The notes under the pieces were generated by a model. The model was not told where the DNA came from. It saw nothing but the letters and a program-made list of their open reading frames with translations, and did no database searches. A program made the position numbers and the translations under genes. Shown one piece after another: positions 13,484-55,060 of a stretch of 64,000 nucleotides of DNA. The stretch lies in assembly GCA_964106915.2 (NCBI GenBank), contig OZ066919.1; one strand, written 5' to 3'. Each line of letters opens with the position of its first letter. Position 1 is the stretch's first letter. This DNA is from Podarcis gaigeae (taxonomy: Eukaryota).

Positions 13484-15037
13484 TCAATATTTTTTTGTCT
13501 TGTCTTGAGAACAATTTTCATTTGTGTTGTTCAGGGAGTCCATACTCCCATTCCCTGTAACCACACCGGTGAGTATTTTTTCTACCTCCCTAGGTAATAC
13601 TTGTCTCTCTTCATTCTCTGTCTCCCTGTGGTAGAAATAGTTAAAGTTGGAGACAATGACTGGCACAGGAAGTGCAATGGTGAGCACCCCTGCAATAGCA
13701 CATAAAGTCCCCACTATCTTTCCCCCCAGGGTGATAGGACACATGTCTCCATAGCCAACAGTCGTCATGGTGACCACAGCCCACCAGAAGCCATCAGGTA
13801 TGCTGGAGAAATGTGACTGTGGTTCGTCCACCTCTGCAAAGTAGATGGCACTAGAAAACAGGATGACCCCAATGAAAAGGAAGAAGATGAGCAAGCCCAG
13901 TTCCCTCATGCTGGCTTTGAGGGTCTGTCCTAAGATTTGTAGCCCCTTGGAGTGCCGGGAAAGCTTGAAGATACGGAAGACCCTCACCAGGCGAATAATC
14001 CTGAGAATGGCCAGGGACATGTTCTGTTGGCCGTTTAGCTCAGTCTGTTGAATCAGCTCCGTGGTGAGGGTCACAAAGTAAGGAATGATGGACACAATGT
14101 CTATGATGTTCATAATATTCTTGAAGAACTCAGCCTTGCTGGGACAAACAATGAATCTGACAAACAACTCAAAGGAGAACCAGACGATGCAGGCAGTTTC
14201 TATCACAAAGAAGGGGTCTGTGAAGGTATTAGGGACCGCAATGGCTTTGGTTAGATTGTTAGCTTCAGCCTTGAGGTCCTTGATCTCCCTCTCATCTCTG
14301 AACTCAGGTAAGGTCTCTACACAGAAAATGATAATAGAGATGACAATAACCAGGACCGAGACCAAAGCCACCCCTCTGGCTGCACTAGAGCTTTCAGGGT
14401 ACTCAAACAGCAGCCAAAACTGCCTATGAAAGTCATTGGTTGGCAGAAGAGTGACAGGGTCCTTGATGAAGCCTTCATCCTCTCTGAATTGGTCCATGGC
14501 ATCTTCGCCCAGCTCATAGAAAATGATCTCGTCAGCAAAGACATCTATAGGGACGTTGGCTGGGCGCCGGATTTTTCCTCCTGATTGATAGTAGTAGAGT
14601 ATCCCATCAAAGCTAGGCCTGTTTCTGTCGAAAAAGTACTCGTTCCTCATGGAATCAAAGTAGTGTATCCTCTTCTCAGGATCTCCAAGAAGGGTTTCTG
14701 GAAACTGATCCAGAGTCTTGAGCTGTGTCTCAAACCTCAGCCCAGCAATGTTTATGATGACTCTCTGGTCGCCCTCATCCATGCCCACATTCTCCAAGCC
14801 CAGGTGGTCACTGAACTCAGTAGACAATTTGGAGAATATGGTCTCATTGTTTGTGTTCTCACTGTTGATGAGAATTCTCCAGTTGGACAGGAGGCTGGTA
14901 CAGCTGGGATGCCCTTTGTGCGATTGGCCAGCAGCCCTGAGGTCATTTGAAAAACAAGGCTCTTCCGCTACCTCGTCGGTGTTGTCAAAACTAACCAGTG
15001 CCACCTCCATTTCCTTCCAAGTGGACACGTCCATCAT
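13484..15037 (-). CDS. KCNA10: Potassium voltage-gated channel subfamily A member 10 (Kv1.8), uninterrupted coding region, 517 aa
   Basis: KCNA10-specific N-terminus [19 protein letters not shown]1 domain ([15 protein letters not shown]...[21 protein letters not shown]), S4 [19 protein letters not shown], pore [13 protein letters not shown]6 PVP hinge, and a C-terminus without a PDZ xTDV motif. Confidence 0.97.
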
Positions 15038-15114
15038 ATGGGGGTAATCAGATTAGCGGCATAAATCCCGAGGTTAGATACCGGCAGCTTGCGTCTTTCC
15101 CACGCTATGATGAT

Positions 15115-30669: not shown

Positions 30670-33417
30670 TACTTGAGATTGTGTTTTGATGGCTGCAATT
30701 TTGGCTATTAGTCAGAAAGTATATGAATCATCTGGCACTGGTTGTTTTTCAAATCCCTTGAAATAGCAATTAACAGTGTTACAGTAACATACAAAATTTC
30801 AGGTCATTCAGCTCCCCTTTTCTTTTTCCCAGTTCAGGTACAAAATATAACAGTGACTCAGAGAGCAGTAAGGAAAAGGGGCAACAACCTCCACTTGCCT
30901 TGCCTCTCCTTCTAAATGGTGCAGATTGATCCCACAAGCAAATGGGAAGTAGTGATGAAGACAAAGTGGTGTTACTCCGTTAGGAAGACTCTTGAAGTTG
31001 GGTTGCTCAAGCCCTACCTCAGGGGTGGGGAACAAGATCTGGCCCATGAACCAGATTGGTCAGCCCTCAACCCTCTACAGGCCAGCTTTGACCAGTGGGC
31101 AGGACCACCCACCAGACAATCCCCTGAGATTGTCTGGTGGGTGGTCAGGTGATTGAAACTGGGATCGCTGCAAGCACTGATTGGCAAGCACTGAAAGGTG
31201 GTGTGGTTACAGCGACCACCTTTCAAGGCACACTCCCAGAGGCTTGCTCCATTAGCACAAAGCAGTTTGCATCAAAAGGGCTCGCTAAGATGTAGGGAAC
31301 AAGCCCACCTCATCCCCCCTCCACAAAAACCCGGAGATGACATTGCTTTAAAAAGCTTATCACATGGTACCTCTAATTATGTCCAGAAGCACTTGTAACA
31401 TGGTTAAGTCTACAGGGGAGGAAACACCCCCATAGCCACTCCATTCACTTGTAGCCACTGTGCCATAAGCTTTTAAACAGCTACCCCTAGAGAAGCAGGA
31501 GTACCTCAATTGCTCTGCATGTTTAGGTGACCTGACCTGGACTAATACATCAATTGCATTAGTCATTTAGATTTTGCACTTCTCCAAATTTTACAATATA
31601 GTTCTTGTCTCAAATCACATACCCCAATGTGTAAAAAGCTTGTCCCAATAGTATTTTAGAGCAGAAAAAAAATATGTTTAGAAATGCATACGTTAAGGTA
31701 AAAAAAAGTCATATTTTGTGGTAAAATAGTATTTTAAATACTTTTTAAAATTAAAAAATCTGTTTCTTTTTAAAAAAACAAACAAACCCAGATCAGTGCA
31801 AAAATGAGACTTAATGTACTTCTGAATGAATGCATGTGAAATTACCATGGACTGAAATTAAACTGAAGTTCACCCTTAGGGACCGTATTGCTGCCAGTCT
31901 TGAATCACCCATACCACAGAAAACATCAAGGGGGACCACTGTCAATACTTTCCCTTATGAGGTTCAGTTCTGAGAAAGATAGAAATGGGATTGGGGTGAC
32001 ACACCTGGGGCTGGGGAGCCAACCTCCCACCCACCAGCCAGGGTGCTACGTGGACCCAGATGCCCGGCTGCAATGCCGCTCTTTCTGAGAAAGAGAGAAA
32101 GGGGGAAATGCTAGATCAAGAGGCCGCGGTCACAATGCTATCCCTCATTTTTAGCTGTAAATATCCTCACTTGCACACAAAGCCTGATCCAAGTCCAGTG
32201 ATATCAGTTAAAGCTCTTTGGCGCTAGCGTGGTTTGCATGAACACTTCTAAGTCAACAGAACATCCCCTGCACAAGAAAAGCCTCACAGTGGATTAGCTG
32301 ATTAATGTTAATGCATCCCGAGTATACTTCTAAGGTAGCACACTCTGAGCTTTTGTCATTTTCTGTTCTATGACATTTGATAGTCTAATTACTGTTCTAA
32401 TTGCTGTACCACAGGACATCAGATCTAGCCAACAGAGGTGTTTTCATTTCCTCTGGAGAAACACCGGCGTTGCCACTCTGCATATTTAGCACATCTTGTA
32501 TATTCCACACATTCACTTTTGAATATGGAAACATGCTGTTCTTAAACACACACCACTTTATATTACAAGAATTCATCAACAAAAGGTTTCTTAAGCAGGC
32601 ACTTACTTAGAAACAATATTCTGATATTCTGATTTAGGTGACTACCTGCAACAGGGTTAGTGATGTCACGGAACTCATATTTCAAGGGTCGCAAGTACAA
32701 GTTTCAGGAGACTCATCACAGCTCAACGGCAAGTGAATATTGTAACCCCTGAATTCCCCTTCCACCTCTTCCAGCCGACCTCAAATCTGCTCCCTCCCAC
32801 CCAAGCAGCCCACTTTCAATGCATCCTGATTCCCCAAGCCTCTTGTAGGAACATAAGAAGCTGCCTGGACCACTGATCCACCTTGTACAATATTGTCTAC
32901 TCTACACCACCTGGAAGCAGTCCCCCGGGGTGTCAGGAAGGAGTTTCTTGTGGCTCTACCTGGGTTTGAACCTGGGACAGAAGATACCGTGCACTTAAAC
33001 TAGGGACTGCATGTTGAGATTCTTACGTTGCATGGGGTTGGGCTCTCGGAACCCCTTCCTACTCTGCAATTCTTTGATTCCTCTTCCATTCTCTTCAATG
33101 CCACTAAGCTCCAATGGGTGGTAGAAAGATAAAGAGAGGGAGGGAGGGAAGGAGGATTCCTATCTCTCCCCATTTAGCACACCAGGCTACAAGACTGGGA
33201 AATGTAATTTCCCCAAGGCAACTGACATTACAGGAGCTCTTGGGAAAATTACATCTCCCAGGGGCTACTTCAGCCTGGCTTTCAACACTTCTATGCAGTA
33301 CGCACAGCTGATTTTGGAGGAGAGAGGAGAAAGTAAGCTCCTTCCCCTCCTTCCCTCTTTCTGTGGCTTGTCGTAGTTTGCTGCTGGTGCTTAGGAACCT
33401 GACCTCCAATGCAGCTT

Positions 33418-49084: not shown

Positions 49085-51569
49085 CCTACTTTTCTAGCAT
49101 CTCCATTCCATTCCCCCTCCTACCAGGTTGTCAGGTATTTTCTGCTCAGCATTCAGTCAACATTCCATGACCCCTGAGCATGCTCAGTTCTTATTAGGAT
49201 GTTTTGGGGGATTCCCCCCATTTAGGCCCACTCCTTAAAAGATTTTTTGTACTTCTGCAAACCTCCCAGCTATCTTCAGTCTGCTGATACCTCCCACTTC
49301 TGTGGTGGAGATGCAGTTTTGGTCATGCAAACAACTGCACACAAAGTACTGAGCAGGAATTAAAATACAGTATGCGTAATTAACAGGAATCCATTATTTC
49401 TAGAATCCCCAAATAGGGCTGTGGAAGATGCTAAATGAGAGGGGGGTGTATGTACATGACTGGCTTACACTCTATTGTGGTAGAAGTCTCCTTCCTCTCC
49501 ATTCACTTACAGATTCTGTATCCGTGCCTTAGCACAGAACTATTAAAATATTTACAGCCGGGCTGGATAAAAAAGACCGAGGCTTGAATTATTCATGCTG
49601 TTCCTTTTATCTTGGCAATGGCAACTTTATTTAGTGTGGAGGATTCCTACACTAGAATCCTGGGTAATCTCCCTCAACCAGAATCACTAGATAAACTCTC
49701 CGGTGTGATTAGCACCAATTAGAAAAGGAGGTGGGGGATCAAATTGTAACTTCTCGCTGGAGACAAGAAGGTTGTCGCTTTGATGAGCTGCAAGAAGGAT
49801 ATATAGTCATACGTCTGGTGTCTTGCAGCACAAGGAGAACAGTTGTAGGAAGAAGGGATCTCCCAAGCTTACTTCCAAGAAGCAACTGGGCACATTGCCT
49901 AACATCAGGCTGGGCTTCTGGAGGATGTGAAACAGGCATTGCATCTCAGTCATGCTAATGATAAGGAAGCCAAAGGGTCCTAAGTTGTGGTTTAAAGAGC
50001 CCAAACCAAAGCATCCCCTAGAGGAAAAGAGCCATAAAGGAAACATGAACTTGACCTAGAATGAGAGAAAGAAAAGTTGAACTTTAGCTTCACATCACAC
50101 TTATTGCTATTCATGGCTATGAAAGTGGTATCATAACATTTTGTGGTGCAGATGTGACCAAGGTCTCTTCTTCTTTGGACTGCAGCTTCTTCCTTGGTGT
50201 CCAGTTACCGTATTTTTAGCAATTTCATCATTCTCATTAACAAAACATATGTGGCTCCAATTTCTTCTACACACCTAAGTTGCACTCCGAACCAGCTTTG
50301 TCCAATAGCTTTGGCTCCACACGCCCCAAAATGTTGGCCTGTGTATAAGCCTCAAGGCCCAATTATAAAGAGACTGAGGTCCAGAAGTCTGTTCATACAT
50401 TGTTGCCCACTCTAAATTAGGCGGGAAGAAGTTGCATTGGTCCAACTTGGCACTGGAAAGCCCCATGATCATATATTTTTCGTACATGGAAGAAGCCAGG
50501 AGAAGAAAAGCTGTGAGGTAGTGCTGGAAAGCCGGATGGGTTCCAAAGAATTTGACTCATAATTGGCAGGAGGTCTGTTCTAGCAACAGGGAGCATCAAT
50601 ATAAAGCTGGCTTTCACACCACGCCAACAACAAGGAGGAAACATCCCAGACAAGATTCTCAGAAATCAATGAAAAATCGACAACACTGACACCCAGCATC
50701 AGGTGTTAATGTCTTTGAAGTTTTCATCCCTTCCTTATAAATGATGTTGGTCTCAAGAGCAGGCTCAGAGAGTCCATGCCAAAAGGAACTGAGTGCAAAA
50801 CTGTTCCTTGTGTAAAAGTCCTGATATTCTTTGCAGACTCTTCAACAGGATGTGGTTGAGATGGTGATGGTTAATGACTGGACTGGTGTCTCCAAGGGTT
50901 TGAGGAATGGAATAAACTTTGCAAAACTACTGCAAAATCTGCACAACTGCTTAAAATGTGAGCTCAAGGCAAGTGGGGGGGGGTTTCTATTCCATCTCCT
51001 TGCCCTTCTCACCATTTGTATGTTCAAAGACAATGAAGGCAAGGAGGAGAAAGAACAGGGCAGCCCTATATAAGGATGTGGGCCTCAGCAAGTGCCCTAC
51101 GCCAGTCCTGTAGGAAGGAGGTGAAATGCCATCACTGCCTATGTTCCCTTGCTCCCTCTTGAATAAAGTGGTCTTTGGATGTGTTGTATATGTTTAGTAG
51201 GGGAAAGGTAAACTAAGGATCCTGCTTTGGTAAAGAAAGAAAACTAGAAGGCCTCATGAGATATCACCCCCTGAAACCCAATAATTCTATCATTTGTTCA
51301 AGATTATTCATATATTGTATACCATGGGCTCAGGTCAGATTATTATTAGACAACTCCCATCATCCCTGCCCAGTGGTTCTGCTGGCTGGAGGTTGAAGGG
51401 AGTTGGAGTTCAAGAGCAGCTGGCGGGCTGCACATACCCCATCCCTGCCTTAATGCTATGATTTCCCCTCCCATTTAAATTGAATAATTTCAGGGAAGGT
51501 TCTTTACTGTCCCAGCTGCCAAAATGATGCACTCTTTTAATTTTCTGTTCGTATATATGTTTGCATTCA

Positions 51570-52211
51570 AAAGTCAAGTGCTTCAACGCATTAGGGACAT
51601 AGAGTTGCAATGTCATATGGCCAAAATGGATAAACATGCCACAATTAGAGACTTTGGGAGAGGGTTTTCACCCGCAAATTATCTGGCTGATTTACAAATA
51701 CCTAAGTACAGACACTCCTTTACCCTGGCCAGATTCAACGTTCTGCCCTCTGCCCTGCTGCTAGGCAGATATGAGGGCAAACCATATGAGTCACGTGTTT
51801 GCCCATGTGGCTCATCGGAAGTGGAAACAAGTCTGCATGTATTGCTGCACTGTAGTTACTATGAGGATCTACGCCTGACCTTTATTGCCCCAGTTCTACA
51901 AAAGCTTAAAAATGAACCAGAACTCCAACGTATGAGAGCCTTGGTAGAAGATAAGGTTCCTGAAATTACGATCAATGTTGCCAAATTCTGTGTAGCCGCT
52001 ATTAGGCGTAGGAAACAAGAGCTTTCCAATGTCAATATGCAGGCGAAGGCAAATACTTAATTTTATTTATGCTGTCTAATTTTAAACTGCTGTTATGGCC
52101 TAATCTGTATTGAAATTGTCCTTTGTTTTTTTCCAGTGTTATGCTTTGCTGACTAGCTGTACGAGTTAACCTGGTCTGTGACCGTTTAATAAAATTTGAT
52201 TTGATTTGATG
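51570..52211 (+). mobile_element. 5'-truncated non-LTR retrotransposon (RTE-X/Tx1-like ORF2 C-terminal zinc knuckle)
   Basis: Open frame ending at 52060 with FTLARFNVLPS...GRY...RVCPC...E...HVLLHC..Y..LR, then AATAAA and an (ATTTG)n tail. 13-bp TSD ATGTTTGCATTCA at 51557-51569 and 52212-52224. Confidence 0.85.

Positions 52212-52937: not shown

Positions 52938-52942
<5 letters not shown>

Positions 52943-52993
<51 letters not shown>
52943..52993. repeat. (TA)n microsatellite (second tract at about 53201-53227)
   Basis: Direct reading; the two tracts flank the palindrome. Confidence 0.95.
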
Positions 52994-52996
<3 letters not shown>

Positions 52997-53196
52997 CTTT
53001 CGTAGATTTTCACGGGTACAGGAATGCAGGTTTTGGTGTCCTCGGGTGTCTTCCCGTGTAAAAGTTGGGGTGTCTAGGCGACGTTTCGACGAGGTCTCAC
53101 TCGTCATCTTCAAGAAGATGACGAGTGAGACCTCGTCGAAACGTCGCCTAGACACCCCAACTTTTACACGGGAAGACACCCGAGGACACCAAAACC

Positions 53197-53201
<5 letters not shown>
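52993..53201. mobile_element. Penelope-like element terminal-repeat fragment forming a perfect inverted repeat, inside (TA)n
   Basis: Arms 53024-53111 and 53114-53201 are exact reverse complements (88 bp, 2-nt spacer). Each carries GAAGA-T-GACGAG-tgagac-CTCGTC-GAAACGTCG, the hammerhead-like signature of PLE pLTRs. Confidence 0.85.
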
Positions 53202-53234
<33 letters not shown>

Positions 53235-53965
53235 CATATACATATACATATATATGTGCACCCACATGCTATATAGCTTTTACACTCAATGCAGGAGCTA
53301 CTTTGGCTTAGGCTAATGTCACAAAAGGCCAAATACCAACTTGGGTGAGTTTGACCCCAAACCCAGCTCAACTATTACAGTCTGGGCCAGGGTTTTATCC
53401 CATTTTTGTAATCTGTCTCTTCAGAGTTATGTTCAGCTGTTGCAGTAATGTTTTCCAAGTCTTTACCTGGCTCCTCCCAACATCTCTGCACTTGAGGGGC
53501 TTAGTGTTACCGCAGAAATTAAGGCTGAATTTGAAGAGAGGAAGGAGTCTAGGAGCCCCTTTTTCTTACCTAGAGATCTGTGGGGCATATCCCAACTAGA
53601 GCTCAGGTAGGGTGAAAAAATCTCAAGAAAGGAGGGAGCTCTGTGTTAAGGTATCATCTTCCACAGATGAAATCTCTACCCCCATGCCTTATCCTTAACT
53701 GTGAGAAAGTCTAAATGCTTAGTGTGATTGCACTGGCACATAGTCATCCCCATATATCTTTGTTTTAGTCTTCTCCCCATCCCATCATATAATCCTCATT
53801 GCTTCCCTTCTCCAGTCTCAATATAGTCTGTGTGTCTGCTGCCAAGAAAACATGTCTCTCCTCCCCATCCCATGCCTGCATTTAAACTGTAAGGTCTCTG
53901 GGGCAGAGATGTTCATCTTTTGCTTCTGTTGCTCTTTTGCTCTCGAAAGCACTGTGTTAGCTGAT

Positions 53966-54334
53966 AAAGGTAAAGGTAAAGGTACCCCCGCCCATACGGG
54001 CCAGTCATGTCCGACTCTAGGGTTGTGCGCCCATCTCACTTAAGAGGCCGGGGGCCAGCGCTGTCCAGAGACACTTCCGGGTCACGTGGCCAGCGTGACG
54101 AAGCTGCTCTGGCGAGTCAGCACCAGCGCAGCACATGGAAACGCCGTTTACCTTCCCGCTATAAAGTGGTACCTATTTATCTACTTGCACTTAGGGGTGC
54201 TTTTGAACTGCTAGGTGGGCAGGAGCTGGGACTGAAAGATGGGAGCTCACCCCGCCGCGGGGATTCGAACCGCCGACCTTACGATCAGCAAGTCCTAGGC
54301 GCTGAGGTTTTACCCACAGTGCCACCCACGTCCC
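53966..54334 (-). mobile_element. Sauria SINE
   Basis: (AAAGGT)n tail and B box GGATTCGAACC on the plus strand. TSD GTGTTAGCTGATA / GTGTTGGCTGATA. Confidence 0.9.
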
Positions 54335-55060
54335 TGCCGTGTTGGCTGATAGCATGATATAAAACCTTGTTGCTTCTTCCTCCAGCTGCCCTGCTTCCCA
54401 GCCCAAAATGTATCCTGTGTGTGTGTGCATGTGTATGTGTGCCCGCACGCTACCACAAAATTTTCCAGTGAAACCCCTCTGGGTCTGAGAAAAGCAGGGG
54501 AGAAGCTGCAGCTGTGCCTTTTCCTTTCAACAACAGTTCTCATGGCAGCATCTTGACCCTGGGCTGAGTCCCAGCTGTCAGCGATTACTCCTTCCTTGGA
54601 GGAAGCTGCTGCCTTGTCCCTCCATTATTACGTTCCCTTCTCATCTCTTTCTGCAGGCTCACACGGCAAGTCGTGACACACTCACAGTCAAGGGAGGGCA
54701 GCCAGCCTTTGTCCTCCTTCCCCCATGTGATAGGAGGCTCTCGGCTGCTATTTGCACTCTCTGTGCCCTAAACAAAGGCTTCCCGTCTTTGATGCTGCCT
54801 TTCGGATAGGATGCGTTGACGCTGGTCATGAATCTACAGTCAGTTATATTTTCAGAAATAGGACAGCTCTTATTTAAGTAGCCCTCCGGAGAAACTTCCA
54901 GCTCAAAAAACAAAATGCAGTGTGCTTGTGAACACACCCTCTCCTGTATTTTGGTAGATGAAGATGGCACCATGTTTTTAGACTGTGAGGTGCTCCCCCT
55001 TCCCAAGCAAGCAGAGACATCCTTGAAGAAGCAATTTCCTATAGAGGAGATGTAGGGAGA

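Follow-up and report, generated by a model that had tools for sequence, protein, structure and literature searches.

Head-to-head palindromes of a young Penelope-like element in Podarcis gaigeae: probable twin priming on both target strands, and junctions as a possible record of RNA 5' ends

A perfect palindrome lying inside a run of (TA)n in the genome of Podarcis gaigeae raises the question of how two facing copies of one mobile element came to be joined head to head, and whether a ribozyme set the point at which they turn. The window is a 64,000-nt stretch of a 1.5-Gb assembly (contig C15:48856001-48920000); element positions are numbered with the A of the ATG as +1. An inverted-repeat scan returns two exact arms of 88 bp each (53024-53111 and 53114-53201) around the spacer AA, 178 bp in total, and confirms what a preliminary description, made from the sequence alone, had said of the arms, the 2-nt spacer, the flanking TA tracts, the arm motif and the readings across the junction (TTGAAGA on the minus strand, AAGAAGA on the plus strand). 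Among non-simple perfect inverted repeats of at least 16 bp with gaps below 30, the window has one other, at 31103-31146, with arms of 19 bp and a loop of 6 nt. RNA folding of the palindrome gives -185.8 kcal/mol (z = -26), and none of 200 shuffles is equally stable. Its parts are as follows.

52939 to 52993, no strand: left (TA)n tract, the likely target site; any target duplication is masked within it
52990 to 53112, minus strand: long arm, element -5 to +118, with +1 at 53107; identical to the intact copy L095
52990 to 53023, minus strand: one-sided tail, +85 to +118, between two putative reverse-transcription starts (on a basis that includes PMC11167929)
53080 to 53112, minus strand: minimal-hammerhead remnant, U4 to the GUC triplet, predicted cut 53080/53079 (features according to PMC4209133)
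53113, no strand: single junction base A, which fits neither arm's native continuation and is likely untemplated
53114 to 53201, plus strand: short arm, element -4 to +84, with the ATG at 53118; identical to L095
53114 to 53145, plus strand: minimal-hammerhead remnant, G5 to GUC, with a 6-bp stem II at 53120-53137; predicted cut 53145/53146
53200 to 53255, no strand: right (AT)n tract, decaying into (AC/AT)n

The extension of ~30 nt on the left is element sequence (+85 to +118), not spacer, and the outermost few bases of the long arm are common to it and the left TA tract. Compared with L095 the arms are equal letter for letter, and the 88-bp arm has its 7 CpGs intact. The palindrome is a pair of 5'-truncated copies, placed head to head within (TA)n, of the beginning of the ORF of a young Poseidon-type Penelope element. 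Any target duplication at this locus is hidden by the TA sequence; sister loci show duplications of 12-14 bp. Elsewhere in the window, a 522-aa open frame at 13484-15052 (minus strand) with BTB_2 and Ion_trans domains (Pfam) is a voltage-gated potassium channel gene, which we take to be KCNA10-like; a 190-aa open frame at 51488-52060 (plus strand) resembles, by eye, the C-terminal end of a non-LTR retrotransposon ORF and has no Pfam hit; and the repeat at ~53975-54340 is presumably Sauria-SINE-like.

The intact full-length element, at L095:3345-6616 (contig C1, near 12.60 Mb), consists of a pLTR of ~195 nt, a 991-aa ORF and a second pLTR, with a unit length of 2,965 bp and the partial tandem that forms the pLTRs. 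Its stop codon falls 9-11 nt after the ATG of the next unit, within hammerhead stem II, so that ORFs in tandem overlap. The ORF product (P0001) matches RVT_1 (E 6.9e-16, Pfam) and, at residues 705-758, GIY-YIG (E 7.2e-4; 20.2 bits, below the Pfam cut-off of 22.6). Aligned by eye to the Anolis carolinensis protein P0021, to which it is 45% identical over 773 aa, it has a CCHH motif with two Cys inside the GIY-YIG motif and two His after it. By eye, the N-terminus of P0021 in turn agrees with the RNA shown in Fig. S1B of PMC11167929. Inspected in the same way, P0001 lacks the additional Zn-finger linker that separates RT and EN in Neptune and Nematis (PMC8557442). The best named protein relative, from Podarcis muralis, is 94% identical, and a PDB search returns four distant RTs and nothing closer. 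The parent element would thus belong to the Penelope/Poseidon clade, a placement by pairwise identity and domains. Since the palindrome arms are identical to the start of this ORF, the initial attribution to a Penelope-like element is borne out.

Exact matches to a 43-mer taken from the arm number 7,288 across the genome (3,640 forward and 3,648 reverse; the reversed control has 0), a figure that counts arms and not insertions. The first 100 of these on contig C1 (the C1 sample) differ from L095 at 60 of 65,071 bases (0.09%, in a total that includes L095 itself), so that the whole family is very young. In six places (L005, L011, L046, L071, L096, L101) at least two inverted pairs are chained via fresh (TA)n tracts, which suggests repeated insertion into TA runs left beside earlier copies. 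A complex insertion of the family at L022:1541-2730 is followed immediately downstream by a long open frame resembling, by eye, a nicotinic acetylcholine receptor exon.

Could the palindrome be an artefact of assembly or of a chimeric read at this single site? Perfect inverted repeats within TA tracts are difficult to assemble, and public DNA contigs from four runs neither span the locus nor show an empty site. The arms, however, are of unequal length, only one of them having the tail; the flanks differ from each other, and each is carried by single contigs in all four runs; the same class of short palindromes has 171 members like it, with varied junctions and family-specific ends; and sister loci carry target duplications. 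An artefact is accordingly very improbable. The palindrome is confirmed in the assembled sequence, for which no spanning read or contig was found. The locus is also ordinary, being of known layout and one of 171 similar short palindromes, and adds little when taken singly.

The native element has what a minimal hammerhead needs in its core: full CUGANGA with C3 at -6, an extra U before stem II, a G10.1-C11.1 pair, a 6-bp stem II (+3 to +20), GAAA, a palindromic ACGU (15.2-16.2) and a GUC triplet. Stem II folds. Helix I is absent from the folds; by eye it has 2 clean pairs, or 3 with a bulge, fewer than the 4-5 bp of a minimal hammerhead. None of the 42 matches that an Rfam scan gives at E up to 10 is to a hammerhead model (what it does return are miRNA-type models on TA or hairpin sequence, all below gathering scores, and these were rejected), so that the covariance-model scan suggested beforehand does not recover the motif, which is discerned by sequence. 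By the NUH rule a hammerhead cut is placed after the triplet. The predicted cut here follows GUC, at +28/+29 (window 53145/53146 and 53080/53079). The palindrome turns at -5/-4, upstream of the cut by 33 nt. The turn is therefore not at the ribozyme end, and the proposal that this inversion was made at or next to a ribozyme-defined RNA end does not hold for the locus. Both arms start at -5/-4 and thus lack C3 (-6) and the 5' strand of helix I; the plus-strand arm also lacks U4. Minimal-hammerhead motifs are present in the arms, as first described, but neither is a whole ribozyme, and with these parts missing and the rest locked up in an 88-bp hairpin no ribozyme activity is expected at the locus.

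In its core, the extra base before stem II, its long stem II and the palindromic ACGU replacing helix III, the native motif is like the metazoan minimal hammerheads of PMC4209133. It differs in having only 2 clean pairs in helix I (as does the D. virilis variant, for which a 2-bp helix I is reported in PMC4209133), and the motifs at the locus are cut inside the core. Pairs of minimal-hammerhead motifs on opposite strands, 100-700 bp apart, have already been reported (PMC4209133). Much else about the locus is likewise familiar. Endonuclease-bearing Penelope-like elements (PLEs) are known to leave an inverted, 5'-truncated copy with a one-sided tail of 30-40 bp and a target duplication, with a bias to (TA)n or simple AT-rich targets (PMC8557442, PMC3846280), and the palindrome resembles these insertions in its head-to-head arrangement, its tail at one end and its (TA)n target. 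It differs from typical inverted copies in lying at the short end of the size range, without a full pLTR. Already known, then, are truncated copies in inverted arrangement, a tail at one end only and a bias to TA; the parent element is a new and very young family member.

The closest biochemical comparison is with the Poseidon enzyme of Anolis carolinensis (PAc), which nicks and extends both strands, prefers AT-rich targets and is predicted to be a dimer (PMC11167929). Two start sites bound its tail, the main one lying 111-118 nt into the ORF, and its hammerhead cut is predicted 26-28 nt into the ORF (PMC11167929 itself puts it 26 nt past the start codon); that study saw no reads with an end at the hammerhead site, and no difference between strands in start site in vitro. 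The Podarcis element is like PAc in the organization of its ORF (RT and C-terminal GIY-YIG, with the ORF starting at hammerhead stem II), in its AT-rich targets and in two ends bounding a tail of ~30 nt, and its long-tail end at +113/118 coincides with the PAc start at +111-118 (PMC11167929). It belongs to a different family, whose 991-aa protein is extended at the C-terminus by a long stretch of low complexity and whose stop codon overlaps the next ATG. The account of PAc in the available sections of PMC11167929 also differs in that the Podarcis copies have coupled starts within one insertion and spikes among their inner ends, neither of which is reported for PLEs in the accessible parts of the literature searched.

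The coupling is evident from the outer ends. When outward-facing matches within 3.3 kb are taken as pairs, 80 of the 100 matches in the C1 sample form 40 pairs. In 37 of them one end lies near +84 and the other near +113/118 (expected fraction 0.50, p ~1e-8); two are long-long and one is short-short. The one-sided tail of 30-40 bp, found at the palindrome on the left arm only, recurs in these 37 pairs. The same is seen in 150 pairs from three junction-selected sets (one set shares four loci with the C1 sample): 136 are heterotypic, three are long-long, and in 11 an end fits neither class. Targets are pure TA for 12 nt on both flanks in 124 of 161 simple pairs, and 12-14-bp target duplications are found in several pairs whose target is not pure TA (e.g. 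L134, L178, L253). Both outer ends, at +84 and at +113/118, coincide with AT microhomology to the target, and the +84 end sits at ATT.

Head-to-head palindromes have been ascribed to fold-back self-priming, in which a nucleic acid folds near the ribozyme and copies itself (PMC3846280), the tail coming from nuclease trimming of one end (PMC8557442); the palindrome had also been presented at first as a snapshot of fold-back priming. The inner lengths of paired arms are correlated, as that explanation would have it (Spearman 0.65, n = 40, with 0 of 10,000 shuffles as close), inverted microhomology is found at 38 of 60 junctions that lack a -5 end, and the ATT at the +84 end is the preferred cut motif of the Anolis enzyme (PMC11167929). 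However, a fold-back copy must lie inside its template arm, and the arm reaching further 5' is the short-tail arm in 17 of the 37 pairs and the long-tail arm in 16, with four ties. In 17 of the 37, then, neither arm contains the other, simple fold-back cannot yield them, and half of the pairs would need an extra trimming step. The palindrome junction, moreover, is without microhomology, its turn is 33 nt away from the predicted cut, and in vitro it is RT starts that bound the tail (PMC11167929). Fold-back self-priming is on these grounds improbable, and the snapshot it was thought to provide is not borne out. The Podarcis counts instead favor twin priming, at variance with the self-priming and nuclease resolution of PMC8557442 and PMC3846280, as far as the available text of these sources goes.

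That both nicked target strands prime reverse transcription on element RNA, that the resulting cDNAs are end-joined, and that spikes among the inner ends mark RNA 5' ends is, taken as a whole, the explanation that we consider probable. Its last part depends on where the arms end internally. Short palindromes were sorted by the gap between two fixed motifs (68 with gaps of 6-35, 171 with 36-65, 90 with 66-95 and 149 with 108-137, classes that leave out gaps of 96-107), and a second motif gave 65 more. Junctions were analysed for the first 50 members of each of three sets (those of 171, 149 and 65) and the first 15 of each of the other two (68 and 90), against a simple null model of uniform breakpoints weighted by microhomology. 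This tally of breakpoints, of a kind proposed at the start, bears out the expectation that they would be non-random around the hammerhead core: inner ends form spikes at -42, -5 and +29.

The spike at -42 holds 45 of 100 ends (null 0.5-0.9%) and involves 31 of 50 junctions (null 0.8-1.8%), among them 14 on a 2-nt GC overlap; only one of the 100 arms of the C1 sample ends there. A TATA-driven start is expected ~30 nt after its TATA box, and -42 lies 30 nt after a TATA-like box at -72. Coinciding as it does with the position at which such a start would be expected, the spike serves as a plausibility check on the reading of inner ends as RNA ends.

At +29, the predicted hammerhead product, are 17 of 100 ends (null 2.2-3.6%) and 14 of 50 junctions (null 3.8-6.9%), an enrichment with a junction-level p of 5e-6 or less. 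The neighboring position +31 is equally frequent (17 of 100; null 3.6-6.5%), mostly on 4-nt microhomology, and nine of the 14 junctions with a +29 end have 1-2-nt microhomology. In the 13 junctions that lack microhomology, ends fall most often at +29 (6 of 26). The idea of a ribozyme-defined end thus holds for a minority class of copies that turn at +29, to which the palindrome locus does not belong.

The palindrome locus belongs to the class ending at -5, with 26 of 100 ends (null 1.7-1.8%) and 20 of 50 junctions (null 3.3-3.6%). Position -5 accounts for the ends of 5 of the 100 arms in the C1 sample, as against 12 ends for the whole of -60 to -6 (55 positions). Across the genome, the base at -6 is non-native in 200 arms and that at +28 in 58; SNPs were rejected as the source of these counts since, among arms checked, 30 of 30 (-5) and 28 of 30 (+29) are true ends. 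Microhomology was rejected as the cause of the -5 spike: the null stays at 1.7-1.8% at any weight, and the junctions are mostly without overlap. Blunt or base-inserted junctions make up 18 of 20 with a -5 end and 22 of 60 others (Fisher p 5e-5). By eye, 12 of 30 -5 ends have partners that end between -15 and +1, and seven of 30 reflect a jump onto a new template, joined head to tail. At L186, L191, L198, L200, L204, L206 and L208 the join is head to tail, with the -5 end coming after a piece that stops at +109 to +176, an arrangement expected of template jumping. The base before -5 is not the cap-derived G looked for (A 16, T 10 and G 4 of 30, C being excluded by design), and no splice acceptor is found there, no AG preceding -5 in the element sequence.

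The main rival for -5 keeps the twin priming and makes this position a stop of the RT: stem II, or its mirror in the cDNA, would refold 7 nt behind the enzyme and release it in the manner of a terminator hairpin. The 6-bp stem II begins exactly 7 nt downstream of -5; telomerase-type RTs hold a short RNA-DNA hybrid; and there is neither a TATA-like box ~30 nt upstream of -5 in the element sequence nor an AG acceptor before it. Independent stops at ~2.7% per pass (200 of ~7,300) should seldom coincide, however, and yet 12 of 30 partners end between -15 and +1 (by eye). Untemplated bases and template jumps, both found at -5, are typical of run-off from a template end, as with R2 and group II intron RTs. 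A stop behind stem II is in consequence unlikely, and a run-off at an RNA end remains the preferred reading of -5.

Transcripts were sought in RNA reads of a related species. Raw reads over the 3' end of the element (L095:5600-6640) indicate transcription from both strands; no pile-up of starts at -42, -5 or +29 is listed for them (3/4 places shown; fragmented libraries), and none of the RNA sets listed contains the palindrome locus. A>G and T>C lead among the read differences in these runs (X23, X24, X21 and X15, with 41 and 53 places, respectively, in X24). In reads with several mismatches T>C is strand-biased, and most T is read as C in a loose-end consensus over the hammerhead arm. The excess, seen in RNA reads of another species, looks like A-to-I hyper-editing of hairpin transcripts of inverted pairs.

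The following sequence of events would account for these insertions. The GIY-YIG nuclease would make staggered nicks in AT-rich DNA. An RT that is likely dimeric would then begin two cDNAs, probably on a single RNA, the first close to +84 and the second close to +113/118, and both cDNAs would run off the 5' end of the shared template, at -5 in the case of the palindrome locus. An untemplated base would be added, and end-joining would connect the two cDNA 3' ends. On this scheme -42 would correspond to the predicted start of transcription, +29 to the predicted product of the hammerhead and -5, as a best guess, to an RNA end trimmed or processed 7 nt ahead of stem II. The palindrome, having no working ribozyme, would then be an inert by-product. 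(Several things weigh against the explanation: no read starts are listed as piling up at the spikes in the related species; PMC11167929 saw no reads with an end at its hammerhead site; microhomology accompanies part of the ends at -42 and +29, most at +31, and both outer ends; the null model is simple; helix I is short and the GIY-YIG match is below its cut-off; and inner lengths differ by hundreds of bases in many pairs of the C1 sample, large differences that one shared RNA end leaves unexplained without later trimming.) A fuller and more tentative version, to which we would assign somewhat less than an even chance as a whole, is that the junctions are a fossil map of RNA 5' ends, that a dimeric RT copies one RNA twice from starts ~30 nt apart, one for each target strand, that the +29 spike is in vivo evidence of minimal-hammerhead cutting with the cut RNA used as template, and that -5 is an undescribed processing or stop site inside the core.

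The origin of tandem and inverted PLE insertions, and whether minimal hammerheads cut in cells, are left open by PMC8557442, PMC4209133 and PMC11167929. It is the family-level pattern, more than the single palindrome, that is worth pursuing, and the spikes at +29 and -5 are its testable part: because this genome has arms by the thousand, almost identical to one another, and one or more intact ORFs, twin priming can be tested here against fold-back, and so can the role of the ribozyme.
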